DNA of 64,000 bases from an uncultured virus (IMG/VR IMGVR_UViG_3300009104_000003) (Duplodnaviria > Heunggongvirae > Uroviricota > Caudoviricetes), in IMG/VR virus record IMGVR_UViG_3300009104_000003; one strand, given 5' to 3'. Both the position numbers and the translations under genes were made by a program. The notes under the pieces are model-generated. The model was not told the origin of the DNA. It did no database searches and was given only the letters and a program-made list of their open reading frames with translations. Below, piece after piece: positions 393-61,265 of the stretch. The first letter of the stretch is position 1; the number at the start of each line of letters is the position of its first letter.

Positions 393-1852
393 TCGCGTCT
401 ACATGTTGAACCGGATTTTTTAACTCCTTCTTTTGCTCTTCCACCCGTTACTGCTGCTGATTCGGCAGTATGTCTAGATCCTATACAAGCTTTGAGAAAT
501 TCTTTTCTAGGTTTTTCTGCTTCAGTCTTTGCTATTTCTGCAGCAATTTCTTTTTCATCCTCAATTCTAGCTTGTCTCTTATTAATCTTTTTCTTATTAT
601 CTTTGTAATCAGGTCTTTCTTCAGAATTAGCTGTCCAAGCTTGAGAAGCTTCATCACCAATTTTACCATAATATGGACAAGGTGTTCCGGCCATTTCCAT
701 AGCTTGGAATACACGTTCGTCTTGACACATTAGAGATACTGCTGCAACTTTCATACCCATATCATATACAGTTTTAGAAAGTTTAATACGTTCACAATTC
801 ATATCTCTTACAGATTTACCACCAGATAATCCAAATACTTGCCCTTGGAATGCTCCACTTACGCCAGTTGTACAAAGGTCTTGTGAGTAAGAACTTCCAA
901 TTGAAGGCGCGATCGCGCTCGCGGGAGGAGCTTTTGTTGTAATCTCTTGCTTGATTGTCTGATCTGTTTTATTAATGTTTTCATTTTTATTAGTATTTTC
1001 GTTCTTATTCGTATTGTTTGTGGTCACATTTGAATCTGAAGTACTTTCGCTTTTATTCACATTAGTATTCGTATTTGTATTATTTGAAGTTGAAGTACTA
1101 GTGTTATTATTATTATTTGTGTTAGTGTTATTCGAAGTACTATTACTATTCACATTTTGATCAACAGTTGAAGTATTAACATTGGTATTAGTATTATTCG
1201 ATGTTGAATTTACTGTAGAATTATTTGTATTCGTGTTATTATTTGTGTTATTCGATGTACTATTATTAGTATTAGTATTATTCGAATTTGAAGTATTAGT
1301 ATTCACATTAACATTCGTATTCGTGTTCGTGTTATTCGAAGTCGAGGTATTCGTGTTATTATTTGTGTTAGTATTACTCCCACTATATGTTGTATTATTC
1401 GTATTCGTGTTCGCATTTGTATTGGTCGCTGTCGAAGTATTAACATTAGTGTTACTATTGGTATTCGTGTTGGCATTCGTGTTCACGTTTGTGTTACTAT
1501 TAGTGTTCACATTTGTGTTGGTATTCACGTTTGTGTTACTATTAGTGTTCGTATTGGTGTTGGTCGACGTGTTAGTGTTCGTGTTCGTGTTAGTCGAGGT
1601 ATTATTATTTGTGTTCGTAGCCGTAGAAGTACTGGTATTAGTATTCGTGTTAGTCGAAGTATTCGTGTTGGTTGAAGTATTAGTATTCGTGTTCGTGTTA
1701 TTGTTGGTGTTGGTCGAAGTCGATGTTGTGGTTTGATTATTATTCTCACAAAATTCCGATCCAGCAGTACAATCTCCCGTCTGATCTGCAAATACAGAAG
1801 GAGAGTGCAAAGCTAATATGGTAGCTCCAACTAAGATTAGTAATTTTTTCAT
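368..1852 (-). CDS. Secreted Asn/Thr low-complexity repeat protein with Cys-containing C-terminal domain
   Basis: Signal peptide MKKLLILVG...VFA; about 250 aa of TNTN repeats; globular C-terminus (DLCTTGVSG...NCERIKLSK...MCQD...GTPCP). Confidence 0.8.
   Translation of the reverse strand: MKKLLILVGATILALHSPSVFADQTGDCTAGSEFCENNNQTTTSTSTNTNNNTNTNTNTSTNTNTSTNTNTNTSTSTATNTNNNTSTNTNTNTNTSTNTNTNTNSNTNVNTNTNVNTNSNTNVNTNANTNTNSNTNVNTSTATNTNANTNTNNTTYSGSNTNTNNNTNTSTSNNTNTNTNVNVNTNTSNSNNTNTNNSTSNNTNNNTNTNNSTVNSTSNNTNTNVNTSTVDQNVNSNSTSNNTNTNNNNNTSTSTSNNTNTNTNVNKSESTSDSNVTTNNTNKNENTNKNENINKTDQTIKQEITTKAPPASAIAPSIGSSYSQDLCTTGVSGAFQGQVFGLSGGKSVRDMNCERIKLSKTVYDMGMKVAAVSLMCQDERVFQAMEMAGTPCPYYGKIGDEASQAWTANSEERPDYKDNKKKINKRQARIEDEKEIAAEIAKTEAEKPRKEFLKACIGSRHTAESAAVTGGRAKEGVKKSGSTCRREWKELENS
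960..1745. repeat. Low-complexity coding repeat (Asn/Thr codons)
   Basis: Degenerate GTATTC/GTGTTC/GTATTA hexamer periodicity. Confidence 0.85.
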
Positions 1853-1930
1853 TGATCCTTTGTCCTAGAAAATTAGTTAAATTTGCATTTCACAGCAATT
1901 GTACAGAACGAAGAATTATTTAGATATAAC

Positions 1931-1938
1931 TATTTATA
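1931..1938 (-). promoter_or_regulatory. T4-type late promoter TATAAATA
   Basis: Exact motif, intergenic, upstream of the Asn/Thr protein; gp55 is present in the window. Confidence 0.7.
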
Positions 1939-1956
1939 AATTTAGGTTAGTTAGAA

Positions 1957-2689: not shown

Positions 2690-2697
2690 TGGAATTC

Positions 2698-2949: not shown

Positions 2950-2968
2950 TTTATTTCTCCGAAATAAT

Positions 2969-6896: not shown

Positions 6897-7598
6897 TTAT
6901 CTCCGATTATATTTATCAATTGTTTCAATTAATTCTTTGTCCCAATTATCTCTATGTTCAATAAAGATTTGCGGACCTTGATCCCCAGCTATGCATACAA
7001 CTAGTTGAGTTATAGGCATGCCTGTTAATTCTTCCCACATTATTGCATATCCTGCAGTTTGCATAAAATAGTTTGTTACCCATTCTTTCTTTTTCCATTT
7101 GTTCGATGTTTTCCAATCAATAATACTATTCTTTCCTTTCCAAACCCCTACACAATCTGCTGTTCCAGCTACTTTTAAATATTTAGAATGTAATCTTTGT
7201 TCTGTAGCATATACCTTACTTAGGTTTTGATCTATGATAGGATGAATATTATAAAATAATTCCATTATGTGTGGTAATGGATCAGCTGCACCTCCCGGTC
7301 CTTCAGCCGAAGCATGAATTTTAGTCGCTGGTCTATATGTATTATTAACATACATTTCAAGTAGATCATGTACTTCATTTCCTTTTTGAACTGCTTGGCG
7401 ACTAATCCTATTTGCTTCTTCCGCGCCTACGCGCTCGCGCCATTTCATTATTCCTTCTTTGCTTAGAATAGATAGAACAGAAGTAATAGAAGGATATTCA
7501 TTACCCTCTTCATCCATATAAACTCTACCAGATTTTCTATTAATCTGTTTAAGATTACTTTCCTTTATATCTACTTTCTCGTGTAAAAATGCTGGCAT
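6897..7598 (-). CDS. PD-(D/E)xK exonuclease (RecB/lambda-exo/Cas4-like)
   Basis: YPSITSVL, GNEVH, AGTADC, IIDWKTS, YFMQxxGYA. Confidence 0.85.
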   Translation of the reverse strand: MPAFLHEKVDIKESNLKQINRKSGRVYMDEEGNEYPSITSVLSILSKEGIMKWRERVGAEEANRISRQAVQKGNEVHDLLEMYVNNTYRPATKIHASAEGPGGAADPLPHIMELFYNIHPIIDQNLSKVYATEQRLHSKYLKVAGTADCVGVWKGKNSIIDWKTSNKWKKKEWVTNYFMQTAGYAIMWEELTGMPITQLVVCIAGDQGPQIFIEHRDNWDKELIETIDKYNRR

Positions 7599-10473: not shown

Positions 10474-11564
10474 TAGAGGCTTAATTTAGATAATTGTTCT
10501 TGGTCAACATCTTGTTTAATTCCACCAACTACGTAAGAACTTATTTCTGTTTCTTGAGGAGCTGGTTGAACATTTCGGCCAGAAATCCATTTCTCCGTCC
10601 AAGGGAGTGGATTTATTCTTCCTGCAGTATAAGGACATGTTAGTCCTACTGCTCTCATTCTTTTAGCTCCTATCCAATCAACATAATCTGCAAGGAGCTT
10701 TTCATTTAATCCTATCATTGATCCATCTTTAAATAAATATTCTGCCCATTCTTTTTCCTGATCTATCACATTTATATATAATTCTGTACACTCGTCCTCA
10801 GTTTCTTTTGCGATCTTTTTGAAATCTTTATCTTCTTTTATTAAGGTCTTTAGCATATAGCTTGTGGATGCTAAATGAACATTCTCATCTCTGGCAATAA
10901 ACTTAATAATTTTTGCATTACCTTCCATCTTTTTTAGTTCCGCGAACGCCCATGCGCACGCGAAGGATACATAAAATCTAATTCCTTCAAGGGCATTAGC
11001 TGCCATAAGGCACATCCATAATGCTTTTTTATGGTTATATAAATTATTTCGTAAAACAGGATCATTATCCTTATTATTAAAAGCAATTAATTCATCATAA
11101 TATTTTGCTATATCATTACCACATTCTAGTATTTCTTTTATATCAAGTAATCCATCAAATACTATCGAAGGATTAGGATAAACATTTCTAATAAGATGAG
11201 TATAAGACCGTGAATGAATTGTTTCAAAAAATGACCAAGTTTCGATCCACGTTTCAATTTCGGGTAAAGAAGATATAGGTAGGAATGCAATATTAGGTGC
11301 ACGACCTTGAACCGAATCCAACATAATTTGTCGTTTAAGATTTGATGTAAATATGTGTTGTTCATGATCAGTCAAAGAATTAAAATCTTTTTTGTCCCTT
11401 GATACATCTACCTCTTCTGGTCTCCAAAAAAATCCTAATTGTTTTTCTGTTATCTTTTCTATTGCAGGGTATCTAACTTGATCATATCGAGCAATATCAA
11501 CCCCCTCATCAAGAAACATTCCTTTGACAAGGTGTGATTTTTTATTCTTTTTTAGGATACCCAC
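10473..11564 (-). CDS. nrdB: Ribonucleotide reductase class Ia beta subunit
   Basis: FFWRPEE, ETIHSRSY, LEGIRFYVSF, RDENVH, APQETE. Confidence 0.97.
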   Translation of the reverse strand: MGILKKNKKSHLVKGMFLDEGVDIARYDQVRYPAIEKITEKQLGFFWRPEEVDVSRDKKDFNSLTDHEQHIFTSNLKRQIMLDSVQGRAPNIAFLPISSLPEIETWIETWSFFETIHSRSYTHLIRNVYPNPSIVFDGLLDIKEILECGNDIAKYYDELIAFNNKDNDPVLRNNLYNHKKALWMCLMAANALEGIRFYVSFACAWAFAELKKMEGNAKIIKFIARDENVHLASTSYMLKTLIKEDKDFKKIAKETEDECTELYINVIDQEKEWAEYLFKDGSMIGLNEKLLADYVDWIGAKRMRAVGLTCPYTAGRINPLPWTEKWISGRNVQPAPQETEISSYVVGGIKQDVDQEQLSKLSL

Positions 11565-11789: not shown

Positions 11790-14073
11790 CCTCTTCTTTT
11801 TCTATTTCTCTTATCCAATATTCTTCAACATAATCTTCTTCTACTGGTAATTCCCCAGCTCCATCATATGTATTGAAGTAATAAAGTTGTTTCAATCCAT
11901 ACTTATAAGCTGTAACCAAGTCTTGTATCATGACTGACATTGGTACCTTTTGATCCTCATAATTTTCTGGATTATAAGAAGTATTAACACTAATACCTTG
12001 ATCAATATACTTTTGTAATATAGCACATATTTTTAAATATCCTTCTGGGGATTTTTGATCCCAAAGAAGATCATATTTATTCTGAAGATGAAAATGACCA
12101 GGCACTACCTGAGCCATTACTCCATCCTTAGATTGTTTATATGATACTAAAGCCCTTGGAGGTTCAATACCATTAGTGCTATTACTAATTTGTGCAGATG
12201 TTTCTGATGGCATTAATGCCATAAGCGTAGAATTTCTTATACCGTGTTCTTTAAGTTGTTTTCTTAAATCTTTCCAAGGTAATCTAAGCTTCGGTTTTAT
12301 TAATTTATCTACTGCACCCTTATATGTATCAATTGGCACTTCTCCACGGCTATATTTTGTCTCATTAGACTTAGGACAAGCACCTCTTTCTTCTGCTAAG
12401 TCAGCTGAAGCTTTAATTAAGTAATATGACCAAGCTTCTGCATATTTGTTTATAATTCCAAAGGCATTTTGATCATATTTAAGTCCTCTTTTAGCAAGGA
12501 AATAAGCTAGGTTAATAATACCTACACCTAGTGGCCTTCGAGCCTTTGTAGATAGTTCTGCTTCCATTACCGGATATTTTTGATATGATAATAAATTATC
12601 CAGAGCTCTTACTGTCAAAGTACAATACTTTTCAAAATCTTTTGTTTCTTCGATTAATCCCCAATTGATTGCAGAAAGAGTACACAAACTTATTTCTCCT
12701 ACTCCCTTTTCTCCTAAAGGTTTAGTAGGTAGATCTATCTCACAACATAGATTACTCATATGAATAGGTGCTTTTTCTTCTATGAAAGAACCGTGCTTAT
12801 TTGCATGATCAACATTTTGTAGATATATTCTTCCAGTATCTTTTCTTTCATTTAAGAAAGATGAAAATACCTCTATTGCTGGAAGAGATTTCTTTCTAAT
12901 AGAATAAGCTCTTTCATATTTCTCATATAGTTCTTTAAATTTACCTTGATCGATAAAGAAAGATTCATATAGATCTGGTACATCTACTGGATCAAAAAAG
13001 GTTATATTGCCTCCTTCAATCAATCTTTCATACATTAATTTGTTGAATTGAAAGGCATAATCCATATGTCTAACTCTAGTTTCTTCTGTACCTTTATTAT
13101 TCTTTAATACAACTAGATCTTCAAACTCATAATGCCATACAGGTAGATACACGGTCGCTGCGCCCCCGCGCACGCCCCCTTGCGAGCACGACTTAACTGC
13201 TGCTTGAAAGTACTTTAAAAATGGAATTAGACCTGTATGAACAACTGATCCATCGCCTATGCGCGCGCCTAGCGCACGTATGGAGCCCGCACCGATACCT
13301 ATACCGGCCTTTTTACTTATATAATTTACAATAGAAGTAGAGGTAGCGTTAATAGAATCCAGGCTGTCGCCAGATTCAATGAGCACACAGGACGAAAATT
13401 GACGTGTTGGAGTCCGTACACCAGCCATGATAGGTGTAGGCAAACTAATATAAAATTGAGATATTGCATCATAATAAGCTTTTATCCAGGGTAATCTATC
13501 TTCCTTTTCTTTACTAAATAGTGTTAATGCCACCATCATGTAAAGCATTTGTGGGGATTCGTATACTTGTTTTGTCTTCCTATCCTGTACTAGATATTTA
13601 CCTCTAAACTGTTCCATTCCAGCGTAGGTAAATGTATCATCTCTATCATGTTTTATATATGAGTTTAATTGATCTATTTCTTTTTTCGAAAAATTTTTTA
13701 ATACACTAGGATCATACATCCCTTGATCAATATTGGATTTTATTAATTTATAAAGAGACCAAGGTTCATAACGACCATATACTTCTTTACGAATTTTATA
13801 ATTAATTAATCTTGCTGCTACAAATTGGTAATTTGGTGTGTGATCCGAGATAAGTTCGGCTGAACTTTTTATAAGAAGCTCATGAATATCATAAGCTGGG
13901 ATTTTATCATATAGTTGTAGGTTTGCTTTTAGTTCTATTTCTGATTGGGATACACCAGTAATACCTTCGGTTGCCCATTCTAAAACTTTATGAACCTTGT
14001 CTAAATCAAACTGTTGTAAACTGCCATCTCTTTTAGTGACATTTATTTGCATGCTACTTGTTCCGCTAATCAT
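11761..14073 (-). CDS. nrdA: Ribonucleotide reductase class Ia alpha subunit
   Basis: ATP cone VTKRDG, QFSSCVL, SNLCCEI, C-terminal CDSC. Confidence 0.98.
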   Translation of the reverse strand: MISGTSSMQINVTKRDGSLQQFDLDKVHKVLEWATEGITGVSQSEIELKANLQLYDKIPAYDIHELLIKSSAELISDHTPNYQFVAARLINYKIRKEVYGRYEPWSLYKLIKSNIDQGMYDPSVLKNFSKKEIDQLNSYIKHDRDDTFTYAGMEQFRGKYLVQDRKTKQVYESPQMLYMMVALTLFSKEKEDRLPWIKAYYDAISQFYISLPTPIMAGVRTPTRQFSSCVLIESGDSLDSINATSTSIVNYISKKAGIGIGAGSIRALGARIGDGSVVHTGLIPFLKYFQAAVKSCSQGGVRGGAATVYLPVWHYEFEDLVVLKNNKGTEETRVRHMDYAFQFNKLMYERLIEGGNITFFDPVDVPDLYESFFIDQGKFKELYEKYERAYSIRKKSLPAIEVFSSFLNERKDTGRIYLQNVDHANKHGSFIEEKAPIHMSNLCCEIDLPTKPLGEKGVGEISLCTLSAINWGLIEETKDFEKYCTLTVRALDNLLSYQKYPVMEAELSTKARRPLGVGIINLAYFLAKRGLKYDQNAFGIINKYAEAWSYYLIKASADLAEERGACPKSNETKYSRGEVPIDTYKGAVDKLIKPKLRLPWKDLRKQLKEHGIRNSTLMALMPSETSAQISNSTNGIEPPRALVSYKQSKDGVMAQVVPGHFHLQNKYDLLWDQKSPEGYLKICAILQKYIDQGISVNTSYNPENYEDQKVPMSVMIQDLVTAYKYGLKQLYYFNTYDGAGELPVEEDYVEEYWIREIEKEEDEDCDSCTI

Positions 14074-18364: not shown

Positions 18365-19005
18365 CTTGTTATATCTCCAGTTGTAATGAAAATATCTTGG
18401 CCAGTTTTAGAATGATGTACCTTGTATATAGATTCTCCAAGGAAAGTATCATAGGGTTTTTCTGCAGTAGTAATTTTAACTTTAGAATTAGCTTTTGCTA
18501 TCATTTCTCCAGTATCACTAGAAGCTATATCGTTGATTAAAGTATAATGCCCAGGATTTAATTCCCCTAATACATTAGTAAACCATTTAGATTCTTGAAG
18601 AGGTAGATTATCCCAATCTAGATCTAATTCAACTTGATCCATAATTTTTCTGATTTGTTTTTCAGACATGTGAGTATGTTCTTTAATAAGATATAGAGCT
18701 GCAGCATATTTTGCCAGTGTGGTTTGCCCAACACCAGGGATTTTTTGGATTAATCTTTTAACGTTGAATACTAATCTATGAAAGACAGTATAGGCTGATT
18801 TCTCTCCAGGAGTTTCTATCTTCTTATCTTTAAGCCTTTTGCCTTTATTATCAATAAGACCAAGTTTGAAAGCTGGAGTAGTATCCCATTTTTGAGTTAA
18901 AAGTCTAAGGAATCTAAATGCATAGAATAAATCAGCTACGCGGGAGACCGCGCCTTCTTTAAGTTCTGTTACATTCTCTGTTGTATATCTTTGTAATGTT
19001 CTCAT
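18361..19005 (-). CDS. Conserved T4-like putative virion protein
   Basis: AFKLGLID..GKRL and YTVFHRLVFNVKRLI motifs. Confidence 0.7.
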   Translation of the reverse strand: MRTLQRYTTENVTELKEGAVSRVADLFYAFRFLRLLTQKWDTTPAFKLGLIDNKGKRLKDKKIETPGEKSAYTVFHRLVFNVKRLIQKIPGVGQTTLAKYAAALYLIKEHTHMSEKQIRKIMDQVELDLDWDNLPLQESKWFTNVLGELNPGHYTLINDIASSDTGEMIAKANSKVKITTAEKPYDTFLGESIYKVHHSKTGQDIFITTGDITR

Positions 19006-43567: not shown

Positions 43568-43943
43568 TATGTGAAGGATTTTCCCATCCTTCGGGTTTCA
43601 TTAAGTCTGGTAATCCTAAAGGATTAGGTCTTTCAGGTTTAGTACCAACCTCTTTTGCCATATTAGCTTTATGTACTTCGTTCCAGGCTTTTTCAACATC
43701 TACTCCAAATGCGAGTAATGTTCCTATTGCGATAACACATATATCAATATGACCATCAATTAATTCTTCCGGGTCTGCGCACGCGAACGCGTGATTTGAT
43801 TCTAGCCATTCTTCTTTTAAGAAGTCCATTCTAAATCTTAGGAATTCAAAGAGTTTATCTCTATTAGCAGGATCTTGCATCCAATCTTGAATGCCAAACT
43901 TCTCCTGCATATCAGTTATATCTTGTACCCAATTTGAGCTCAT
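43533..43943 (-). CDS. All-alpha dNTP pyrophosphohydrolase (MazG/PRA-PH-like; possible dCTPase/dUTPase)
   Basis: EEWLE...EELIDGHID, VHKANMAK, KPEGWENP. Confidence 0.8.
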   Translation of the reverse strand: MSSNWVQDITDMQEKFGIQDWMQDPANRDKLFEFLRFRMDFLKEEWLESNHAFACADPEELIDGHIDICVIAIGTLLAFGVDVEKAWNEVHKANMAKEVGTKPERPNPLGLPDLMKPEGWENPSHNGNHGNLTDNI

Positions 43944-44290: not shown

Positions 44291-46816
44291 TTATCCAAAG
44301 AAATCCTCCAATGTACTTATCTCTATAGAACTCCATCCTATTGCAGTAAGAATTGGATCAACTGCATCAAGGAAAGACTTTTTGAATTGTAGTTCATAAT
44401 CTATGTATCGATGCAATCCAAACTCTTTTGGAAGGTAATCTGGAAATGCTATTACATTTTCTTTTATTGGATTAGGGGTTCGGAGATATAAGAATTTAAC
44501 TTTATCTCCATTTCTGAGATTAGGATATTGAGTTAATCCTAAATCTTTTCTTTTCATATTATAGAGAAGAGAACCACGAACATGTATCGGAGTACCTTTT
44601 CTATATATTGTTTGATTGTCAGAGAATCCAGTTATATTGTTAGCTCCTCTAGGGAAAGCAATCTCATCTGGTCGAAGAGTAAAGAAGTGAGTTTTGAATT
44701 GATCAATCGCTTCTTGTACTTCTTTCTCGCTTTTAGATATAATAACTTTGAATATATTTTTTAAAGCATCTCTGCATGCTTCTGGAGTAGAGCTCTTATT
44801 AGCTTCAACTCCTACTGTTTTGATCTTAGGAGTTTTAAGTCTAACCCCCTCATTGTCTAATACATTTAGAATATATCTCTTTTTGGCCAGATATATTCCT
44901 CTATCAGCAATAACCTCTCGGCTCATATGCATTTTATTTTCTATTCCACCATATCTTTGGAATAAGTTTTCATAGCAATCTACGAATACACTTTCTAATT
45001 CTTTACAAGCTTTATCTAGGAAGTCCACAGGCTTATCCGTATTTACACGTTCAACCAAGGGCCCCAGACCAATATATAAGGAATCTGTATCGATTGCTAA
45101 GACGTAGTCTGAGGAGCTCTGAAGGACCTTGTTTAAGTACCTATTAATAGATTGTTCACCCCATCTAATAACCATTTGTCCTGTTAAGGTGATTGCTTCA
45201 GCGATTCGTTGATCAAAATATCTAAAGTATCTATTACCAAGAGCACCATATAAACTATTAAGTAGGATTTTAAGAGCCATTTGCCTATTCTCTGCAACAG
45301 ATATATCTCTCTCAATCCTATAGATTTCTTGTTTATCTTCTGGATCTACTTTTTGTAAAGCTTGTTGGGCTTTGATTTGTTCTTTTTTAACTCCTACTCT
45401 TTCATTGAATATCTCTTCAACAATCTTAGGAAGTACTCCTTGTTTTTCAGTATGGAAGTATTGTCCATTTGCACATAATCCATATTTATCTTTATATACT
45501 TGTTGCTTACCTTCTAGCATAGAATCTACATTTACATCTACTGTTTCACCATTTGCAATTGTTTCAGGAGACATATTATATTGCATAATCAAAGAAGGAT
45601 ATAGACTACTTAAGTCGAATGATACCACATGATCGTGCATACCTACCTGGGGTTCTTTTACATAACCTCCAGCATAATTTGTTTTAATTGAATCTGTTGG
45701 GAATGGAACTATTATATTATCTTGAATAAGATCTCTATAAATGATTGTATCCCAGATTGCTGTAGTTCCAAACACATCTGGATAGTTAACTCCACCTCGA
45801 TAAGCTATAGTAAGAGCAAGAGTAATCAATCCCATTTTATCTTCAAGACGATCTACTAATTCAACATCTCGAATATTATAATCAATAAACTTTTGGTGAT
45901 CATCTTCATAGAGTTTGTTAAGTGAACCATGTTCTTCATAAGATAATTTCTTCTCACCTAATACTACATAAGCAATATGATTAAGTGCATATGATTCTTG
46001 CTGAGTATATGCATATCCAAACTTCTTAAATATCTCCATATAATCCATATGAGATATACCTTGGAAATCATAAGTTTGATCTCTGTTCATAGACTTATAA
46101 GCTATTCGAACAGTTTTCTCTTCTACTGTACCCCAAGGTGATAATTTTTTAATGTTTTGTTCGCCTAGGTCTGGGCCGAATACTCGAGTAATTCGATTAA
46201 CCAAATAAGGTATATCAAAGAATTTACTATTCCATCCAGTGATAACATCGGGCGTGTGCGAGGGCGTAGCCCAGTGATTAATAAAATCAACTAATAATTC
46301 TTTTTCATCAGCACATTTCTTATAGATTACCCGATTGGTTTTCATAAGAGATTTAGATACATCATAATCTCCTAATCCCCAAACATAGTATGTGTGATCA
46401 ATATTGTTCTTTAAACAAATAGCTGTGACAGGTTTTAGAGCTTCTTTTGGCTCAGGAAATCCCCCGTCAGATTGTACCTCAATATCAATTGTGGTTACAT
46501 TAATTCTAGATCGATCAAATTCTATATGACCAGGAAATAGATCATTAATTAGGCATGCTTGATATCTGGTATTACCAAAGATAAGGCGACCAGCTACTTG
46601 ATTGTTTTGAGTGATCCATTCTTTGGCATCTCTCATAGATTCGAATTTGACTGGCGCAACAGGTGTTCCGTCCAGGGAACGCCATTTGGTTGCTTTGGAT
46701 GTTCCTACAAAAAGTGTAGGTTTGTATTTGATTTTCTTTTGGACTCGTTTACCATTTTCTATACCTCTGTAAAGAAGCATATTTCCATAACGAGCAACAT
46801 TAGTGTAAAAATTCAT
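44291..46816 (-). CDS. 43: Family B DNA polymerase gp43
   Basis: DIE exonuclease motif, SFDLSSLYPS, KILLNSLYGA, IDTDS, KKRY. Confidence 0.98.
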   Translation of the reverse strand: MNFYTNVARYGNMLLYRGIENGKRVQKKIKYKPTLFVGTSKATKWRSLDGTPVAPVKFESMRDAKEWITQNNQVAGRLIFGNTRYQACLINDLFPGHIEFDRSRINVTTIDIEVQSDGGFPEPKEALKPVTAICLKNNIDHTYYVWGLGDYDVSKSLMKTNRVIYKKCADEKELLVDFINHWATPSHTPDVITGWNSKFFDIPYLVNRITRVFGPDLGEQNIKKLSPWGTVEEKTVRIAYKSMNRDQTYDFQGISHMDYMEIFKKFGYAYTQQESYALNHIAYVVLGEKKLSYEEHGSLNKLYEDDHQKFIDYNIRDVELVDRLEDKMGLITLALTIAYRGGVNYPDVFGTTAIWDTIIYRDLIQDNIIVPFPTDSIKTNYAGGYVKEPQVGMHDHVVSFDLSSLYPSLIMQYNMSPETIANGETVDVNVDSMLEGKQQVYKDKYGLCANGQYFHTEKQGVLPKIVEEIFNERVGVKKEQIKAQQALQKVDPEDKQEIYRIERDISVAENRQMALKILLNSLYGALGNRYFRYFDQRIAEAITLTGQMVIRWGEQSINRYLNKVLQSSSDYVLAIDTDSLYIGLGPLVERVNTDKPVDFLDKACKELESVFVDCYENLFQRYGGIENKMHMSREVIADRGIYLAKKRYILNVLDNEGVRLKTPKIKTVGVEANKSSTPEACRDALKNIFKVIISKSEKEVQEAIDQFKTHFFTLRPDEIAFPRGANNITGFSDNQTIYRKGTPIHVRGSLLYNMKRKDLGLTQYPNLRNGDKVKFLYLRTPNPIKENVIAFPDYLPKEFGLHRYIDYELQFKKSFLDAVDPILTAIGWSSIEISTLEDFFG

Positions 46817-51085: not shown

Positions 51086-52229
51086 CTATTTCGTTATCTA
51101 TTTCTGGTTCTGTAGAAACCTCATCTAAATGAGCTCCTGAATCGACCTTAGTATAAAGATCTAGGAAAGCCTCTTTTGTATCCTCGTCGAATCTAGCGAT
51201 GCAGAGGTTGATAGCTTTCATCTTGTTATTAAAGATAGTAAAGCTTTGAACGATGTGGCAAAGCCTACGGGTTGAGATAATTTCATCAACTCCATCATCG
51301 TAGAAAGTTTTTCTGATAATATCAGCCCAATCAACTAGCTTATCCATAAATTCGGTATCAATTTCAGTACCAAATTTTTCGAAGTGCTTAGCTAAGATTT
51401 TCTTTTCAGTAGCTGGGCTAGCGAATTTTTGATCTACACTAATAGTAAATCTTTCTAAGAAAGCTTCATCGATTATAGAAGCTGCGGTATATCGTCCATC
51501 TTCTGAACCTTTACCTTTAGTATTAGCAGTAGCTAAAACGTTGAAACCTGGAGCGGGAGATATAACCTCACCAGTCTTTTTGACTAGTACTGGTTTGCCT
51601 TCAAGGATACCTTGTAAGCACATAATCTTATTTGTAGCCCTATCGATCTCATCGAGAAGAAGGATAGCTCCATTTTCCATTGCTTTTAGCACTGGGCCTT
51701 TGGCGAATACTGTTTCGCCGTTAACTAATCTGAATCCTCCAAGAAGATCATCTTCATCGGTTTCAGGGTTAATTTGAACCCTGATGAATTCGCGGTTGAG
51801 CTGCGCGCACGCTTGCTCGACCATAAATGTTTTTCCGTTACCGGACATACCAGCTACGTAAACTGGATAAAACATTTCTGATTTAATAACTTTTTTAATA
51901 TCTGCGTGTGAGCCCCAAGCTACGTAAGTTGGGTCAACTGTTGCAAAAGTTTTTTCCTTATTAACAATTGATTGTGGTGCCATTGCAACCTCAGCGGTCG
52001 GTAGAGGAATTACCTCTGCTTCTCTAATAGGTTTTACTAGGTGAGCTAGATCGTAGTAACCGATCCTGACCCTGTCTTTTGCGTTGCAAAGCCCAATCCA
52101 GTCAGACTTTTTATACCCTAATGAGTCACCAGCGTCTTTGATTGCTGATGTTTTAAACTCGGTCGTATCCGGAAATCTTCGGGAGAGCTCCTCGAGGATT
52201 TTGTGTGTGGATATTTTCACTTTATTCAT
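51063..52229 (-). CDS. CobS/MoxR-like AAA+ ATPase
   Basis: GMSGNGKT, LLLDEID, ATANTKG, AFLERF, ISTRRL. Confidence 0.9.
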   Translation of the reverse strand: MNKVKISTHKILEELSRRFPDTTEFKTSAIKDAGDSLGYKKSDWIGLCNAKDRVRIGYYDLAHLVKPIREAEVIPLPTAEVAMAPQSIVNKEKTFATVDPTYVAWGSHADIKKVIKSEMFYPVYVAGMSGNGKTFMVEQACAQLNREFIRVQINPETDEDDLLGGFRLVNGETVFAKGPVLKAMENGAILLLDEIDRATNKIMCLQGILEGKPVLVKKTGEVISPAPGFNVLATANTKGKGSEDGRYTAASIIDEAFLERFTISVDQKFASPATEKKILAKHFEKFGTEIDTEFMDKLVDWADIIRKTFYDDGVDEIISTRRLCHIVQSFTIFNNKMKAINLCIARFDEDTKEAFLDLYTKVDSGAHLDEVSTEPEIDNEIDDDDIPY

Positions 52230-52330: not shown

Positions 52331-54595
52331 TTATGCAACCGCCTTACCAAAGTTCGTGAGTAAGACTTTGTTCTTTTTCTTCGAAGCTGAGAACTTTTTA
52401 AATCCAGCTCGGATTTGAGCAGTTGAAGCATCTTCTTTAACTTCAAATTCATCCTGTGTAGCTTCTAGTTTTATGCCTCCCTTAACAAGATAGAATTCAT
52501 CATATCCTACCACGTTCTTAAGAGAAACACATTTGTTCTTTCTATATTCTTTATTAGGTTCTCTCATATCCCAGATATCAGCTTCGTGGAGTTTGCTTTT
52601 GAAATCCCATGTTCTATCTGATACAAAGAAACCAATTGTTGTGCAAGCATATCTCTTAGAGATATTTTTTAGTAATTCGTGTGTAGATCTACGAGGATCA
52701 CCAGATATTTCTAGAAGTTTTCCTTCGATGTGAATTCTATATTTCCATCTATCAAGTTTTAATCCATCTTTATTATCTTTAAGAAAAGAATGTTTCTTTT
52801 GTTGCTTGTAATCTACAAATTCTCTTAAACCGTTTGAATCCCCATCTGATAAAACAACCAAATTCATTTTATCAACCGCATGCTTCATTTTGAATTTCTT
52901 GACTAATGTATGAGCTATAACTAAAGATTGATTAAGAGGAGTAGATCCCCACTGTTCCATCTTTCCTGTCACTGCATAGTCATCCCAGTAATTATCATCA
53001 TAATAATAATTTCTTCTAGATGCAACTGCTAGTTTTTTCATATAAAGCCCTTCAAGAGCTTGATTGTATTCTCTTTTCTTTAAAGAAGAAGAGATTAATA
53101 AAGGTAAACAAACATTACTTATCTCTAGGTCTCCATCCGTTAATAAAGGTCGACCTCGGCTATTCATAAGCTCACGATTTCCTGTAGTAAAAGCATATAC
53201 GTCAAATGGTATATTAACCATTTTGCAAAATGTAACTAGGTGAAATAATTGATCAATTACTTGAGCTAAAGTACCATTCATAGATCCAGAATAATCAATT
53301 AACATAATCATCCCGTGATTTTTAGCATTAGCTAATTTAGTAACTCGAGCAAAAATGTCTTCATTATATTTGTAAGAATAAACTTTGTTAACGTCAAGTG
53401 TACCTGATTTAGCTGTTTGAGCTCTTTGCCATTGGTATCCTGCTTTTCTCATTTCAAATTCTTTTACTGCAAAGTTCGAGGCTCTTTTAACCTGAGCTAA
53501 ATATTCTCCATATCCTTTCATAATTCCATTTTCAGCAGGATCAAAATCATATCGTTCCATTGCGTCTTGTCTAGATTTATGAACTTCTTTAAAAGGAAAT
53601 AGTACATGATCTATAAGCTTTTTGGAAGGTCCTCTCATATATACGGGTTGTTTTCCGTTTTCATCTTCTTCGAGTAAAGTTCGTTCTGCTTCGCGATGGT
53701 TTTCATCGGTGATAGAAACGTCCTCTTCACCTTCGCCTTTATCTTTAGTTCCATCCTCCTCCGTGGATGGGGTATCTGCTTCGTCGCTCTCTGAGCTAGA
53801 ATTATTGGTCTCTGTGCGATCGTCAGATTTATCCCCATCCTCAGATTCGGATTCAGAAGAATTTGATGCTTCATCTTCTTCGCTTGATTGTTCACCATCG
53901 GTTGAGCTTGAACTTTCATCTTCTTCTAAATAATCATCATGTCCCATTTGGGGACCAGCTTCACCCTCACCGGCAATTTCTTCCATTCCTTCTGGAATTT
54001 CTATATCTCCTTCTGGGGGTTGAGGCTTTTGGATAAGTTCAGGAGTATTTTCCTGAGTATAAGCTAGGATTTCTCTGCAAAGCTCAACCACTTCTTCGAA
54101 GGTTTGAGTTTGATACCTAGCTCTGTTATAAAATTCTTTTTCTTCTTTATTAAAATAAATATGAACCATTTCACCAAGCTTGGCTTTAAGGTTAATTTTG
54201 TCAATAAGTTTAATTTGAGTTTGATCATCAGGATAATCGAAAAGACCTCTGTCTTTAAGACTAAAGTATCCTCTTTTGAAAGGACCAACCAGTCCTGGAT
54301 AATCTCTTTGAATAAATCTCTCTATGCGCGCGTCCTCGATCACATTAATATATGATCTTGGGCACCCTTCAAGTTTTTCTGGGCTATCATGCCATCCCTC
54401 GTACGGGGTATATAAAGCATGCCCAACTTCGTGTCCTACCAAAAGGTCATAAACATCTTTACCCATATCTTTCCAAAGAGGAAGACCGAGCGTACGGTTC
54501 TTAACATCAAACCAGGCGGTCGGATAATTACCGTGTTGTACAGTAACATTCTCTTTTGCGAGTAATCTAGCTATTGTTGGATTATTGTGATTCAT
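52331..54595 (-). CDS. CobT-like metallopeptidase/VWA protein, partner of the AAA+ ATPase
   Basis: HEVGH, NVIEDARIE, acidic linker, DYSGSM MIDAS, STPL, LSDGD. Confidence 0.85.
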   Translation of the reverse strand: MNHNNPTIARLLAKENVTVQHGNYPTAWFDVKNRTLGLPLWKDMGKDVYDLLVGHEVGHALYTPYEGWHDSPEKLEGCPRSYINVIEDARIERFIQRDYPGLVGPFKRGYFSLKDRGLFDYPDDQTQIKLIDKINLKAKLGEMVHIYFNKEEKEFYNRARYQTQTFEEVVELCREILAYTQENTPELIQKPQPPEGDIEIPEGMEEIAGEGEAGPQMGHDDYLEEDESSSSTDGEQSSEEDEASNSSESESEDGDKSDDRTETNNSSSESDEADTPSTEEDGTKDKGEGEEDVSITDENHREAERTLLEEDENGKQPVYMRGPSKKLIDHVLFPFKEVHKSRQDAMERYDFDPAENGIMKGYGEYLAQVKRASNFAVKEFEMRKAGYQWQRAQTAKSGTLDVNKVYSYKYNEDIFARVTKLANAKNHGMIMLIDYSGSMNGTLAQVIDQLFHLVTFCKMVNIPFDVYAFTTGNRELMNSRGRPLLTDGDLEISNVCLPLLISSSLKKREYNQALEGLYMKKLAVASRRNYYYDDNYWDDYAVTGKMEQWGSTPLNQSLVIAHTLVKKFKMKHAVDKMNLVVLSDGDSNGLREFVDYKQQKKHSFLKDNKDGLKLDRWKYRIHIEGKLLEISGDPRRSTHELLKNISKRYACTTIGFFVSDRTWDFKSKLHEADIWDMREPNKEYRKNKCVSLKNVVGYDEFYLVKGGIKLEATQDEFEVKEDASTAQIRAGFKKFSASKKKNKVLLTNFGKAVA

Positions 54596-56683: not shown

Positions 56684-57741
56684 ACTACCTCGAGATTTTG
56701 AGCTTCAGTATATAGCTCTCTTAATTTCACTTTTATGCGTTTTTTATCTAGATCTGTTTCTACTGCTTCGACATATGAGTCTAAAAGTTCAGTAGTATCC
56801 TCTAGTGACACTTTATCATCCTTTATACTATCACCGATAAACTCTTCAAAGCTTTCGGCTATCTTGAGTTCGTAAGTTTCTACGTTTTGTAATCGATCCA
56901 TCAATCGATCAAACATATAAAGATCGTTTTTGTTTAGTACAATGAGCTTTATAAACTTTCTTTCGAACTCTTTTATATTTATATTGTTGTAATTTTCTTT
57001 TTCATCATCATAAACAAACTTTTTGAATATGGTGATTGGGTTGCGCACGGGCGTGATCTCGCGCGTACGTGTATCTAATATGTGAAAATATTTTGGATCA
57101 TCCACATCAGCCCAGGTAAACTCCATTTGAGCTCCGAGCATATGTACATTTTCTTTACTAGATTTTGTATGGAAATGACCTGAGTAAACTGCTTCAAATC
57201 TTTTGAAGGTATCTGCATTCATTCCATGTGGATTTGATATACCTGGTTGTACATCGAATCCTTTTAATTCTAAGTGTGCGCAGAGAATATCTGCTTTAAC
57301 ATTATTTGTCCAATTAAGATACTCATCATGGTTATTATTATTAATCCAAGGGAGCATTGCTATATTTAATCCATCATACTCCAACACTGTTGGTTTCATT
57401 ATAATATTAACGTTAGAAGTAAAGTATCCTAAGAGTTCTTTAAGAGAACAAAGCTCGTTAGTATTTTTAAAATATACATCGTGGTTGCCAGGTATAATAT
57501 CCATAGTAATACCACGGTCCCGAATGGGCTCAAGAAAGACCTTACGGTTTTGATTAAGCGCTTTAAAATTAACGAACTTCCTATGTTCATAATAATCTCC
57601 TAGATGGAGTATATGTTTAATGTTATGTTCTTCTAGGTAAGGAAAGAATATTTCTTTATAAAATCGTTCTTGATATTTTAAAAATATATCGGATGAATTC
57701 CTAGTACCACAATGGGTATCATTTAATATAGCTATTTTCAT
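56680..57741 (-). CDS. 47: Recombination nuclease gp47 (Mre11/SbcD-like)
   Basis: DTHCG, LGD, GNHD, SGHFH. Confidence 0.95.
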   Translation of the reverse strand: MKIAILNDTHCGTRNSSDIFLKYQERFYKEIFFPYLEEHNIKHILHLGDYYEHRKFVNFKALNQNRKVFLEPIRDRGITMDIIPGNHDVYFKNTNELCSLKELLGYFTSNVNIIMKPTVLEYDGLNIAMLPWINNNNHDEYLNWTNNVKADILCAHLELKGFDVQPGISNPHGMNADTFKRFEAVYSGHFHTKSSKENVHMLGAQMEFTWADVDDPKYFHILDTRTREITPVRNPITIFKKFVYDDEKENYNNINIKEFERKFIKLIVLNKNDLYMFDRLMDRLQNVETYELKIAESFEEFIGDSIKDDKVSLEDTTELLDSYVEAVETDLDKKRIKVKLRELYTEAQNLEVV

Positions 57742-58460: not shown

Positions 58461-58874
58461 CTAGTGAATAGTATCTTTCGGGTCTGGGAAGGGTATAACA
58501 TTATCCTCATAAGTTCTTTCAGTTTCATCCATCATTTCTTCAATGCTTTCATCTATTTCCTGCATTAAGTCTTCAGGTATTCTATTGTGTGGTACTAGCT
58601 TAGGTTTCATATGATGTGATGCTAGTCTTATATATTCCATCTTAAGTTCTTCGTCAATTTCAACATGATGTAGAATATGATTATTTTCGATCTTAAAAAT
58701 CTTCTGCCCTGAAAAGGGGAACCAAGGAAGGAAAGCAAACCCTCCGATGATATTAGATCTAATTACAAAAGGCCTTTCTACAATATAAGAATCAGGTTCT
58801 TTTTGTGTAACTAACGCAATGATCTCTTCGCCATTCATTAGCTTAAATTGTCGTATATTTATTTTTTCTTCCAT
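58461..58874 (-). CDS. Conserved Sm-like protein
   Basis: QFKLMNGEEIIA; syntenic between uvsW and 55. Confidence 0.7.
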   Translation of the reverse strand: MEEKINIRQFKLMNGEEIIALVTQKEPDSYIVERPFVIRSNIIGGFAFLPWFPFSGQKIFKIENNHILHHVEIDEELKMEYIRLASHHMKPKLVPHNRIPEDLMQEIDESIEEMMDETERTYEDNVIPFPDPKDTIH

Positions 58875-58876
58875 AC

Positions 58877-60364
58877 CTATATATTTATCTCAAAAATCCC
58901 GTATTTAAACTTTTCTTTTGAATATATTTTGATTCTTTCCGCTGCATGATTGAGCGTATAATTCTTCTTAGTCTTCCAATGAAGGTCATCTGCTATATCA
59001 TATACTTTTGTATTTATGCCATCTGGACTCACACGAAGTCCTCTACCAATTGATTGAAGTACTCTTATCTGTGATTTAGAAGGGGAGGCAAAGATAAGAT
59101 TGTTTAGTCTCTTTATATTTATACCAGTTGAGAATGTGCCTAACGAGGCAACAATAATAGCATTATTCTCTTTTTCAGTAATAGATCTTATTTTCTCTCT
59201 AGTATCTACATGGGTTTCGCCTGATACATAAAATAGTTTTCTCTTTTTATCTACTTTAGTTTTTAATAAATCGTGAAGGGGTTTACCATGTTTCTCTACA
59301 TAATTAAATAATATTAATGTATTACCTTTCTGATCAATCGCTAAATTAGCTATAAAATTATTGCGGGGCGCGTAGCCAACTATAAAATCTAATTCATCTT
59401 GATATTTAAGCTTTGATATAACTTTACAATACTCATCTTTATATTTAAGAAGTATAACATCTATATCCATCTGAGCTAGATCACCGGAATCCATAAGCTC
59501 TTTCGAAGTAGTTACTTTATATACTGGACCAAATAATCCTTCTAGAACTAATTGGTGGGTTTGTGTTCCATCTAATGTACCGGTAGTACCTATTCTATAT
59601 TTTGCATTGACACATTTTTCCATTATAGTAGTAAGTGATTTAGCCTTAAAGTTATGTGCTTCATCTCCTATGATCATACCATATCCATCGAACCATCCTT
59701 TTGGTAATTTATGAACAGATTGCCAAGTACTTATTATCACTCTAGGTTCTACATTAAATTTTTCTTTACCTGCATAAACCCTATGGCAATCAAAACGAGG
59801 TTCAAAGTTAGTATCCTTCGAAGAATAATCTTCAAAATCATAGTACATTTGTTCAACTAATGATGTAGTAGGTACAATAATTAGTACCTTTTCTTTGTTA
59901 TATTTTAGGAAGTGTCTTATAGCTAAATAGATGATTAAACTCTTGCCGGACGCAGTAGGTGATAAAAGTAACGATTTTGAGCTCCGTAGCGCGTGCCTAA
60001 GCGCTTCTAATTGGTAGGCCCTTGGTGTTATCATCCCCTTATTCACCGTTAAAATGCATTCTTTTAGTGTTTCTTCTAATAGTTTTTCATTATATTCTTG
60101 GATAATTGGGCCATCATTTACAATAGAATACTCTCTTTCTTCAGCAAATTCTTCAAGATAATTATATAATCCACAGTATAAAGTCTTATTTCTATGATTG
60201 AATAACCTTATTTTTCCATCCCACATTCTATTTCTATATGCAGGCATAAACTTATATCCTGGTACATAGAAACAAAAATGTTCTGCGAGCTCTCTTTCTG
60301 TTGAGGGTTCGCATTCTATTTCTAGGAAAGTTTCGTTAATTTTTTTAACTATTAAAGATTCCAT
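58877..60364 (-). CDS. uvsW: SF2 helicase UvsW
   Basis: WDGKIRLF, SPTASGKS, DEAH, LQSIGRGLR. Confidence 0.96.
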   Translation of the reverse strand: MESLIVKKINETFLEIECEPSTERELAEHFCFYVPGYKFMPAYRNRMWDGKIRLFNHRNKTLYCGLYNYLEEFAEEREYSIVNDGPIIQEYNEKLLEETLKECILTVNKGMITPRAYQLEALRHALRSSKSLLLSPTASGKSLIIYLAIRHFLKYNKEKVLIIVPTTSLVEQMYYDFEDYSSKDTNFEPRFDCHRVYAGKEKFNVEPRVIISTWQSVHKLPKGWFDGYGMIIGDEAHNFKAKSLTTIMEKCVNAKYRIGTTGTLDGTQTHQLVLEGLFGPVYKVTTSKELMDSGDLAQMDIDVILLKYKDEYCKVISKLKYQDELDFIVGYAPRNNFIANLAIDQKGNTLILFNYVEKHGKPLHDLLKTKVDKKRKLFYVSGETHVDTREKIRSITEKENNAIIVASLGTFSTGINIKRLNNLIFASPSKSQIRVLQSIGRGLRVSPDGINTKVYDIADDLHWKTKKNYTLNHAAERIKIYSKEKFKYGIFEINI

Positions 60365-61265
60365 TCAATCTATTCACTGTGCTTTTAACATCATAGCATA
60401 GATAATCATTTATATACCAATATATAAATTGATTAGCTTTATCTTTATTATGCCAACTTATATCTTTACATAATCCAGGCAACTGAGTTAATGTTTGTAG
60501 TTTTTTAGTTACCCAATGATATTCTGGCCAACCATATGATATAATAGGTACTTGGTGCATTAAGCATTCTATTCCTGCAGTACTATTATCTATTATAGCA
60601 ACGCGCGTACGCGGGAGAAAATCATGTATTGATTCAAATCCTTCTCTTACATCTACACCACGGGATTCCCATACACTCTTTAAATTTTTATTAAGGTCAA
60701 ATTTAGGATGAACTTTTACCACTATCTTATATTCTATTACTTGTTTAGATAATCTTTCTACTATCAATTTAAGTTTTTCTAAATGTCCACCTAGGCCAAA
60801 TCCTTTTACTGTTTCATCATCTGGCATTTGACCAATAACTAATATATGATCTTTTGGTACAGACTTGGCTTTTCTCCATTTTAATATAATAGAATCATCC
60901 CATTTATTTGACCTATTATTAATAAGTTCTTCTATTTTATTCCAGTCCATATTAAAATAAGGATTTAAATGACTATATAATATATCAGGTTCATATGGTT
61001 CTTCAAATGCCAATAAAGAACTATTAGCATATCCAATAGTATCAATTGCAAAATGTTTTGAGGTAGGAGCTGTAGGTTTAACAAATAATGCATTAGAATA
61101 ATCCATCTGAGTTAAATCCGTATGGTTAAATATATTGAGATCATCTGGATAATCGATTTGCTCTAATGCTTCTTCTATGCACGCGCGAGCGTAACCAAAA
61201 TTACCTCTCCATTCAAATTTATGTTCATATATTCTATATGCCACTAGTAAATTTTCTCCATTCAA
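60345..61265 (-). CDS. Capsule-polysaccharide-biosynthesis (KpsS/KpsC-like) glycosyltransferase-fold protein
   Basis: GQMPDD, VKVHP, SIHDFL, NSTAGIECL...PIISYG. Confidence 0.65.
   Translation of the reverse strand: MNGENLLVAYRIYEHKFEWRGNFGYARACIEEALEQIDYPDDLNIFNHTDLTQMDYSNALFVKPTAPTSKHFAIDTIGYANSSLLAFEEPYEPDILYSHLNPYFNMDWNKIEELINNRSNKWDDSIILKWRKAKSVPKDHILVIGQMPDDETVKGFGLGGHLEKLKLIVERLSKQVIEYKIVVKVHPKFDLNKNLKSVWESRGVDVREGFESIHDFLPRTRVAIIDNSTAGIECLMHQVPIISYGWPEYHWVTKKLQTLTQLPGLCKDISWHNKDKANQFIYWYINDYLCYDVKSTVNRLNGIFNS

Follow-up and report, generated by a model that had tools for sequence, protein, structure and literature searches.

Phase-regular CG-rich islands written in synonymous codons of a marine T4-like phage as candidate Z-DNA-forming tracts

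The window analysed here, a stretch of 64,000 nucleotides from an uncultured virus of the Caudoviricetes, belongs to an AT-rich marine T4-like phage, with all of its long open reading frames on the minus strand. Its ordinary genes contain CG-rich islands that are confirmed to be real and to be spelled through synonymous codons. All 20 of the patches listed in a preliminary description were found at their positions, and the tracts are given below without strand, with their Z scores in brackets.

902..925, in-phase CG tract in the Asn/Thr-repeat gene 368-1852 (9.6)
7422..7441, in-phase CG tract in the Cas4-like exonuclease gene, WRERVGA (12.7)
10941..10962, in-phase CG tract in nrdB, FACAWAFA (16.0); G005, G016 and further relatives also carry an island here
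13159..13190, in-phase tract in nrdA, SCSQGGVRGGA (18.4), a single phase over 32 bp; full form in 10 of 56 distinct spellings from relatives
13254..13282, second nrdA tract in two blocks (10.9 and 7.3), including a Lys-to-Arg change relative to most relatives
18933..18954, weak tract in gene 18361-19005 (7.0)
26046..26067, in-phase tract in the DUF6267 gene (13.8); 0 of 14 homologues score at least 9 at this site
26501..26538, weak tract in the DUF6267 gene, KWDGAPAVFAG (7.5); GC-rich also in G002, G003 and G005
31927..31962, in-phase tract in the gp41 helicase gene (16.8)
35205..35259, the longest of the islands, within the dCMP deaminase gene and made of two blocks of opposite phase (12.5, 14.4)
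36867..36896, in-phase tract in the thymidylate-synthase-family gene, in codons adjoining the catalytic Cys (14.3)
43770..43793, in-phase tract in the PRA-PH/MazG-like pyrophosphatase gene (15.3)
46249..46268, in-phase tract in gp43 DNA polymerase (11.5)
51791..51829, in-phase tract in the CobS-like ATPase gene (9.9-11.5)
54323..54338, short tract in a peptidase gene (8.7)
57042..57073, in-phase tract in gp47 (17.4), an island in G016 as well
59362..60003, two weak tracts in uvsW: 59365-59378 (5.3) and 59990-60003 (7.6)
60602..61193, two short tracts in gene 60345-61265: 60602-60615 (10.9) and 61176-61193 (11.0)

Clustering of CG was compared with 300 synonymous-codon shuffles, performed globally or per gene, a cluster being at least 5 CG in 24 nt; tRNA-Asp (42073-42150), which also scores as a cluster, was excluded. 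Coding sequence held 15 clusters, far above the 0.5 (global) and 1.2 (per gene) of the shuffled controls, whose maxima were 4 and 6, while the CG total (1082) lies under the shuffled mean of 1154-1165, so that the signal is one of clustering and not of CG excess. The motif CGCGCWCGC was confirmed on the plus strand at 914, 7430, 13167, 35221, 36871 and 51804 and is absent from the other strand; these 6 copies on the coding strand compare with 0.0 and 0.05 in global and per-gene shuffles. CGCGCCTACGC was likewise present at 7422 and 35240, and TGCGCACGCG at 43776, its other copy starting at 10953 and not at 10954 as first reported. The suspicion of an assembly artefact can be dismissed, since the same islands recur in independent IMG/VR contigs and a contig of another study, which spans 31777-32213 and so includes the 31929 island, shows 2 differences over 437 letters. 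The contig matches to the window revealed no molecule ends, and the 40 differences listed, out of 1628, carry no information about polymorphism of the islands. A 5' bias within genes, to which the islands of the window seemed to point, was rejected, since the mean position of 42 non-redundant sites was 0.45 of the length of the gene.

A two-base phase was observed within the islands. Among CG pairs 3-7 nt apart, 158 of 212 (0.75) lie at an even distance versus 0.57±0.03 in recodings by synonymous codons with matched CG number and G+C, and among pairs 8-13 nt apart 164 of 232 (0.71) versus 0.60; the excess is gone from 14 nt on, giving a phase coherence of about 13 bp. This fits the anti/syn dinucleotide phase of Z-DNA, which the controls lack, chance CG clusters of control phages showing 68/184 even distances versus 0.38 expected. 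The excess extends to all even distances between 4 and 14; periods of 4 bp or 10.5 bp are absent, and CGCG-CGCG has no preferred spacing. CGCG pairs at distance 6 numbered 8 versus 7.7 expected, and a CGCG-N2-CGCG dyad or other fixed motif was rejected. When the phase was set by flanking CGs only, in-phase CG scored +1.9 and out-of-phase CG -0.3 in the near clade (2dLL 39), the 2dLL of the in-phase preference being 12 in the window alone, 16-31 in the distant complete genome G017 and about 1 in controls, and these effects persist when islands are chosen by G+C alone. Uninterrupted CGCGCG is less frequent than matched recodings would give (11 runs vs 17.8).

The preferences are also strand-symmetric, as befits a property of the duplex: a strand-specific model with 16 parameters did not improve on the fit of a symmetric model with 10 (LRT 3.1, 6 df, p=0.80), which contradicts the strand polarity suggested earlier. 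The proposed core CGCGCWCGC fared no better, being scarce in island-bearing relatives: it occurs on the coding strands of 2 of 17 other sequences examined, with one copy in L004 and two in reverse sense in G010, and G016 holds 2 copies and G017 1. In the window its 6 copies exceed the 2.7 expected from CG/GC-matched recodings (p about 0.01), which is a small residual, and no fixed consensus was found among 85 island sequences. DNA or RNA hairpins were rejected, as folding energies were not below those of matched recodings (median quantile 0.52 for DNA, 0.42 for RNA).

The step preferences were compared with the reference B-to-Z step free energies of unmodified DNA tabulated in PMC3024258. Non-CG filler steps track this table (2dLL 25 in the near clade, 16 in the window and 11-16 in G017, versus 0-1 in controls), and the order of the pooled fit, CG>CC>GC, CA>CT>TC>AC and TA>AA>AT, is that of the table inside each G+C class. 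Spearman coefficients between preference and energy were 0.63-0.98 depending on set and offset, compared with -0.05 to 0.63 in controls, and the fit demands a large additional G+C term; once background codon usage serves as the offset, CC/GG ranks over CA/TG. The advantage of T(anti):A(syn) over A(anti):T(syn) is slight (-2.8 vs -3.6), where the unmodified-DNA table expects a wide gap. The additional G+C preference and the small CA/TG advantage do not fit unmodified Z-DNA, and a plain rule of resemblance to (CG)n fits equally well. Z-segments scoring at least 11 numbered 14 versus 0.6 expected in the window, 18 versus 0.4 in G016 and 25 versus 4.7 in G017, and 0 versus 0.5 in G007 (120 kb, no cassette, see below). 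A two-state flipping model, run with background values for some of its constants, predicts that 16 window sites flip at |sigma|<=0.05, versus 0.2 after shuffling, that the best 18 flip at |sigma| 0.045-0.050, within physiological supercoiling, and that the first 12 to flip are all islands of the original 20-patch list. No Z-alpha domain was found in the 5 records searched.

The islands accompany a cassette encoding a thymidylate-synthase-family enzyme (TS) and an amidotransferase, with the following genes in the window.

36620..37378, minus strand, thymidylate-synthase-family enzyme of dCMP type, with Asp at E. coli N177, Arg at L143 and Asp169 retained
35310..36635, minus strand, asparagine-synthase-like glutamine amidotransferase, always adjoining this TS in T4-like contigs
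34880..35323, minus strand, dCMP deaminase, cassette-associated
37359-37703, minus strand, small hydrolase-like gene, cassette-associated
37743-38711, minus strand, SAM-methyltransferase-like gene, absent from several island-bearing relatives

Clear islands were found in 8 of 15 long contigs with the cassette and in 0 of 6 spanning the locus without it, from only about three independent lineages (L288, L302, L346 and L349 were scored over their 17-21 kb loci). Carriers without clear island excess are G011, G014, G019, G020 and G021, with G006 and G018 marginal; thus the cassette alone does not suffice. The TS family as sole cause was rejected, as Serbin, MW202455 and 10.7 kb of Muddy, which are other phage types, show no island excess. 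In the first 50 kb of C48C1, the closest isolate by gp43 (48%), 9 segments scored at least 11 versus 8.4 expected, which is not a clear excess, though 43 scored at least 9 versus 28-29. The Asp at N177 is that of dCMP-modifying enzymes according to the residue rules of PMC13326640; position 143 is Leu in the methyl class and Asp or Glu in the hydroxymethyl/hydroxy class in the accessible parts of PMC13326640, PMC8670742 and bioRxiv 2024.12.05.627091, in which Arg143 with Asp169 matches no described product class (5mC, 5hmC, 5hoC). The enzyme resembles phage dCMP methylases and hydroxymethylases (T4 gp42, Xp12, RB69 gp48) in its Asp at N177 and in the dCMP deaminase and PRA-PH pyrophosphatase nearby, and differs from them in its Arg at L143 and its pairing with the amidotransferase. 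Its nearest cultured homologues are Muddy-type enzymes at about 40% identity, none of 8 amidotransferase matches was a cultured T4-like phage with the cassette, and a literature search returned no description of the TS and amidotransferase pair. The link to the phage's own cytosine modification raised in the preliminary description finds partial support in the co-occurrence of cassette and islands.

Among relatives, island density is kept while positions turn over between lineages, and the phase rule repeats in G017 at different sites. The nrdA peptide is written in ordinary codons in 43 of 56 spellings, and the choice of Gly GGG versus GGC tracks phase at each nrdA site. At fourfold G/C island sites in 15 close loci, which are not independent, 53 changes were counted versus about 93 expected from other G/C sites there. 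The 28 sites of G017 are evenly spaced, about 5.6 kb apart with CV 0.42 (P<=0.038 in 36/36 settings), and six other contigs combined gave P 0.004-0.027; the window taken by itself gave no significant regularity (CV 0.58-0.71 with P 0.07-0.24; CV 0.90 with P 0.41 for the list before merging), and the islands of G002 are clumped.

The best reading of these sequences is that the islands are imperfect, putatively Z-DNA-forming tracts of 12-60 bp, selected where the peptide allows, about one per 4-7 kb. The shuffles and the phase rule support the original notion of a dispersed DNA-level signal carried by synonymous codons, and of the four candidates then proposed a Z-DNA-prone element fits best. 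The mechanism that we propose, with a probability of roughly 0.55, joins cytosine-modified DNA to supercoil competition and spacing. Cytosine would be replaced by a C5-modified base, the product of the TS cassette, which would lower the cost of flipping, so that short imperfect tracts could adopt the left-handed form when transcription and replication supercoil the DNA negatively. The setting would be a one-strand genome without a phage type II topoisomerase; PF00521 was found in 0 of 5 long records, and island-free relatives also lack it. Tracts within one topological domain would compete for supercoiling energy, and since only one tract per domain would pay, tracts would become spaced out. 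The flipped tract or its B-Z junctions may then serve as a non-polar landmark. That the landmark is an entry point for recombination-dependent replication (UvsX, gp46/47), where every chromosome end would meet a tract within a few kb, is a doubtful assignment, with packaging or condensation and torsion relief standing as equal alternatives.

An unlikely rival is that the islands are B-form sites of a phage condensing, loading or anchoring protein that binds (modified) CG repeats cooperatively, tolerates mismatches and organises the chromosome. The strong G+C term, the Hamming-like penalty relative to (CG)n, the coherence of one footprint, the even spacing and the avoidance of pure CGCGCG runs would suit such a protein; however, B-DNA has no two-base repeat, yet all even distances from 4 to 14 are raised with no helical or dyad peak, TA outranks both AA and AT when A+T is equal, which is what Z-DNA would give, and in a set of mostly partial contigs the only genes common to the island-bearing ones and absent from the others are the cassette and a UDG-like gene. 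That gene, found in G003, G004, G006, G010, G016 and G017 and the clearest absence in the island-poor sister G018, invites a functionless drive of biased repair or gene conversion, in which a minimal UDG-family glycosylase would turn T:G or modified-U:G into C:G at recombination hot spots. The G+C term and amino-acid changes in the same direction agree with this; but a phase-blind drive expects out-of-phase CG and GC steps equally, and neither is favoured, the nrdA glycines obey phase site by site, drive alone does not produce even spacing and CG is depleted genome-wide. We regard it as improbable. As a single cause the UDG-like gene was rejected, as it was not found in the window or in G002 and is present at many island-free loci. 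If drive acted on flipped DNA alone, this rival and the Z-DNA explanation would become one.

The remaining rivals appear very improbable. A polar Chi/KOPS-type motif that loads or stops a translocase, also among the original candidates, accords with the 6:0 strand split of CGCGCWCGC in the window and with a density similar to that of Chi sites, and is rejected by the failure of the strand-specific model, by the near absence of the motif from island-bearing relatives and by the lack of a consensus. Priming sites, as single-strand hairpins for the AEP-like primase (42644-43567) that replaces the gp61 DnaG type, are no more credible: inverted repeats are visible by eye in several islands, but primases 73-78% identical occur in island-free relatives (L009-L013, G012), which interleave with island-bearing ones on a quick primase tree; neither the co-occurrence nor the hairpin folding of a primase-recognition or ssi element was found, nor any polarity; no solved-structure match was found for the primase or the UDG-like alignment. 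Messenger RNA structure or rare-codon pausing would explain coding islands that use rare codons, frequently at conserved protein motifs, yet is hard to credit when phase is independent of reading frame and symmetric between strands, RNA-folding excess is absent, and the same nrdA peptide is mostly spelled ordinarily while positions turn over.

Among known systems, the islands resemble Z-DNA-forming sequences (flipons; PMC3024258) in dinucleotide phase, strand symmetry, step-energy order within G+C classes, blocks of 12-30 bp, predicted flipping at physiological supercoiling and proposed competition between sites. Unlike flipons, they are set by codon and amino-acid choice inside phage genes, genome-wide and not near promoters; they are imperfect, show an additional preference for G+C and probably contain modified cytosine. 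Chi and KOPS/AIMS are dispersed, intragenic and about one per 5 kb, with density kept while positions turn over; the islands share these traits but span 12-60 bp, are more even than random and have neither polarity nor a fixed shared word of 5-8 nt. HIP1 (GCGATCGC, cyanobacteria) and DNA uptake sequences are G+C-rich, non-polar or both-strand signals that bend codon and amino-acid choice and that drive may maintain; the islands are alike in this, but follow a phase rule and not a word or fixed palindrome, GCGATCGC occurring in 1 of 20 listed islands with its 4-7-mers outside the top enriched words. GC-biased gene conversion and very-short-patch repair cluster AT-to-GC changes locally, amino-acid changes included, as is seen here, whereas the islands show a general G+C term but no gain of out-of-phase CG or GC (out-of-phase CG about 0 in the near clade), and spacing in G017 is more even than random. 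No description of such islands was found in the accessible portions of the literature searched.

On the reading of the islands as Z-DNA-forming tracts, it may tentatively be suggested that a group of marine T4-like phages couples a novel modification of cytosine to a regular lattice of Z-DNA switches, placed at even intervals over the whole genome in synonymous codons, whose torsional flipping marks entry points for replication, recombination or packaging. If true, a chromosome-organising signal would be written as an alternative helix and not as a word. The question whether left-handed DNA has any role in prokaryotes or the viruses that infect them has been short of natural examples in which selection can be seen; here selection is legible base by base at silent sites, and close relatives' normal spelling of the same peptides and the island-poor sister genome provide natural negative controls, so that the question becomes testable with short natural duplexes. 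The islands also point to a probable uncharacterised cytosine modification pathway, and base modification may reshape genome sequence for structural reasons, beyond restriction escape.

All of the recurrent CG-rich patches listed in the preliminary description were found in the window, within coding sequence whose third-position G+C is 22% overall and where GCG, CGC, GGG and GGC each account for less than 10% of their own codon family. There were 15 coding-sequence clusters (at least 5 CG in 24 nt) against 0.5–1.2 in 300 codon shuffles, and total CG in the window lay below the shuffled level, indicating that CG is gathered into islands rather than enriched. The worry that the islands are assembly artefacts was not borne out, as the same islands occur in independent contigs. 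Other Z-prone sequence was also observed: an Asn-Thr repeat in gene 368-1852 (window 1304-1589) has long in-phase CG/TG/TT runs with a Z-propensity score of 19.6 and an appearance unlike the islands, and six further segments scoring 9–12.5 (2560-2575, 17753-17768, 27426-27439, 30579-30602, 45626-45651 and 47058-47077), absent from the original list, are more CA/TG-rich than CG-rich; some of them may be chance.

The window, 64 kb of a T4-like phage, has a G+C content of 34%, carries every long gene on the minus strand and spans gp23, the replication genes and nrdAB; sequencing runs containing its sequence are of marine origin, and the nearest cultured phage by gp43 is C48C1 (48% identity). An AEP-like primase, not of the gp61 DnaG type, is encoded at 42644-43567 (minus strand), with a weak BT4734-like_N match (PHROG 9765) and relatives in 52 viral loci, C48C1 and Vibrio phage henriette-type phages. 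A G+C-rich intergenic stretch with short alternating runs (54889-54962), upstream of a peptidase gene, is a possible promoter or origin element. Further features are:

34255-34533, minus strand, ribosomal protein S21 gene
42073-42150, minus strand, tRNA-Asp gene
42318-42393, minus strand, tRNA-Ala gene

The islands follow a two-base phase. Taken two bases at a time, the nrdA island runs CG, TG, CT, CG, CA, AG, GG, GG, CG, TG, CG, CG, GG, GG, CG, and the G or C ending of every Gly codon is set by phase. Among 41 non-redundant sites (one per homologous position, tRNA overlap excluded), 158 of 212 CG pairs 3–7 nt apart and 164 of 232 pairs 8–13 nt apart were evenly distanced (an even number of nucleotides), against 0.57 ± 0.03 and 0.60 in synonymous recodings matched for CG number and G+C; the excess was gone from 14 nt on, with a deficit at 20–40 nt, where blocks switch phase, and 55 chance clusters from seven control sequences had no parity bias. 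A conditional-logit model, with phase read solely from CGs flanking the codon under test, gave +1.9 for in-phase and -0.3 for out-of-phase CG in the near clade (the closer island-bearing relatives, including the window). For this contrast the window gave a 2dLL of 12, the near clade 39 and the distant lineage G017 16 (31 with islands chosen by G+C only), against about 1 in eleven control sequences. Scoring the non-CG fillers by B-to-Z energies, taken from Table 1 of PMC3024258, which also gives the dinucleotide repeat as the defining geometry of Z-DNA, added 2dLL of 16 (window), 25 (near clade), 11–16 (G017) and 0–1 (controls), and the near-clade fit without a codon-use offset matched the energy table with a Spearman coefficient of 0.98.

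Some features depart from unmodified Z-DNA. Beyond the Z energies, the fit still needs a G+C term of about 2 log units per base, pure (CG)3 runs are under-used and, once background codon use is entered as an offset, CC/GG ranks over CA/TG and syn-position A is hardly better than T. Much of this misfit would disappear if cytosine carried a bonus in the anti position. Z-DNA is favoured by C5-methylation.

Differential retention was observed among relatives. All of them share the nrdA peptide SCSQGGVRGGA unchanged, and its 56 distinct spellings comprise 10 with the full island, 3 with half and 43 with ordinary codons, the carriers including genes with protein identity as low as 77–79%. At fourfold G/C sites within islands, 53 of 264 differed across 15 close loci, which share ancestry; the rates of these loci at sites outside islands would give about 93. 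Island sites turn over between lineages: among alignable window islands scoring at least 11, G016 has islands at 6 of 12 sites, G017 at 0 of 6 and G007 at 0 of 10. For the G017 island sites, the window has an island at 0 of 5 positions and the sister genome of G017, G018 (L386-L393), at 2 of 19. G018, a complete genome with the same cassette (a thymidylate-synthase (TS) homologue plus an asparagine-synthase-like amidotransferase) and without the UDG-like gene, keeps only remnants at these sites and is a natural loss-of-islands control. Amino-acid changes also accommodate islands.

A two-state model took its junction energy (5 kcal each) and the value of -12 bp per turn from PMC3024258; the twist constant, the 10.4 bp per turn, the twist at junctions and the domain size of 6 kb were assumed or general background values. 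It predicted that 16 window sites flip at |sigma| no higher than 0.05, the corresponding figures being 0.2 for shuffles and 0 for G007 (120 kb), and the first 12 predicted flippers in the window are islands of the preliminary description. The complete 157-kb genome of G017 (gp43 48%) contains 25 segments scoring at least 11 against 3–5 expected, one of them 62 bp in phase. Its 28 merged sites, which include one tRNA-like match and a few chance matches, have a mean spacing of 5.6 kb (CV 0.42, longest gap 10.9 kb, P<0.001), with P<=0.038 in all 36 of 36 threshold settings. Six other contigs, which share sites among themselves, gave combined P values of 0.004–0.027; the window alone gave a CV of 0.58–0.71 (P 0.07–0.24), G002 islands were clumped, and control sequences gave P 0.13–0.94. 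Even spacing may arise because Z sites compete for supercoiling, as described in PMC3024258.

In the window TS homologue, the N177 and L143 positions are occupied by Asp and Arg, and Asp169 is retained; the window also encodes the amidotransferase, dCMP deaminase and pyrophosphatases. By the rules in PMC13326640, PMC8670742 and bioRxiv 2024.12.05.627091, the substrate is predicted to be dCMP, and the product is not predictable from them. In relatives, other whole DNA-modification cassettes take its place at this gp43-uvsX locus (L010 12868-20821, L016 6336-13200, L044 7623-12969, L033 7495-13016): some have a dCMP hydroxymethylase resembling T4 gp42 together with several genes for sugar handling, others have glycosyltransferase-like genes and no TS, and cassette type is tracked by the gp43 tree. 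Among 15 cassette-bearing long contigs, eight have a clear island excess (the window, G002-G005, G010, G016, G017), two are marginal (G006, G018) and five have none (G011, G014, G019-G021). No excess was found in any of six locus-spanning sequences without the cassette (G007, G008, G012, G013, G015 and the first 50 kb of C48C1), nor in G009, which does not span the locus. From these tallies the cassette looks necessary, not sufficient, for islands, in about three independent lineages. Six island carriers have a minimal UDG-family gene, which is missing from G018 and the window and common among island-free phages. In many T4-like phages (388 viral stretches) this gene, whose product is about 115 aa long with the motif HPSxLNR (L023 8968-9306, L078 5335-5691, L381 6645-6998), neighbours those for dCMP deaminase and pyrophosphatase, and the G017 copy itself contains one of the strongest islands. 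Neither a Z-alpha domain nor a type II topoisomerase was found, with five records searched for each.

We favour, at a probability of roughly 0.55, the reading that the islands are selected Z-DNA-prone tracts in cytosine-modified DNA. The main competitor, considerably less probable, is a protein reading CG repeats in B-form, which would yield a similar penalty pattern; B-DNA geometry has no dinucleotide repeat, which argues against it. Biased repair is improbable, and an RNA-level effect is very improbable. The proposed strand polarity and shared core did not hold up, leaving a polar motif with hardly any weight: dinucleotide preferences are equal on both strands (LRT p=0.80, 492 codon choices; CA -3.6/TG -3.4, AG -3.7/CT -4.0, GA -4.3/TC -4.5, AA -6.8/TT -6.5), and the 9-mer CGCGCWCGC is nearly restricted to the window and scarce in island-bearing relatives. 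The 85 island sequences have in common CG, CGCG and CG-NN-CG, with no consensus. Priming sites are equally implausible, as near-clade carriers, which gp43 groups together (100/100), are not grouped by primase in a quick tree, and hairpin stability is not raised at islands.

The islands behave like a dispersed chromosome signal but do not share the features of Chi, KOPS, HIP1, conversion tracts or priming sites, and no description of such islands in phages was found in titles and abstract openings of an open-access library. Islands also lie within terminase-like genes, small and large, assigned by position and sequence (L179 13034-13653 in G002, L368 13821-13860 in G016); T4 gene 16 contains a packaging-initiation site. 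Island sites occur in early and late genes alike and mid-gene on average, and with their non-polar character and kilobase spacing this fits chromosome-level use better than gene regulation. Left-handed DNA is bound by RecA-family proteins. As a tentative first guess, the islands might serve as entry points for recombination-dependent replication, with packaging or torsion relief as alternative uses.
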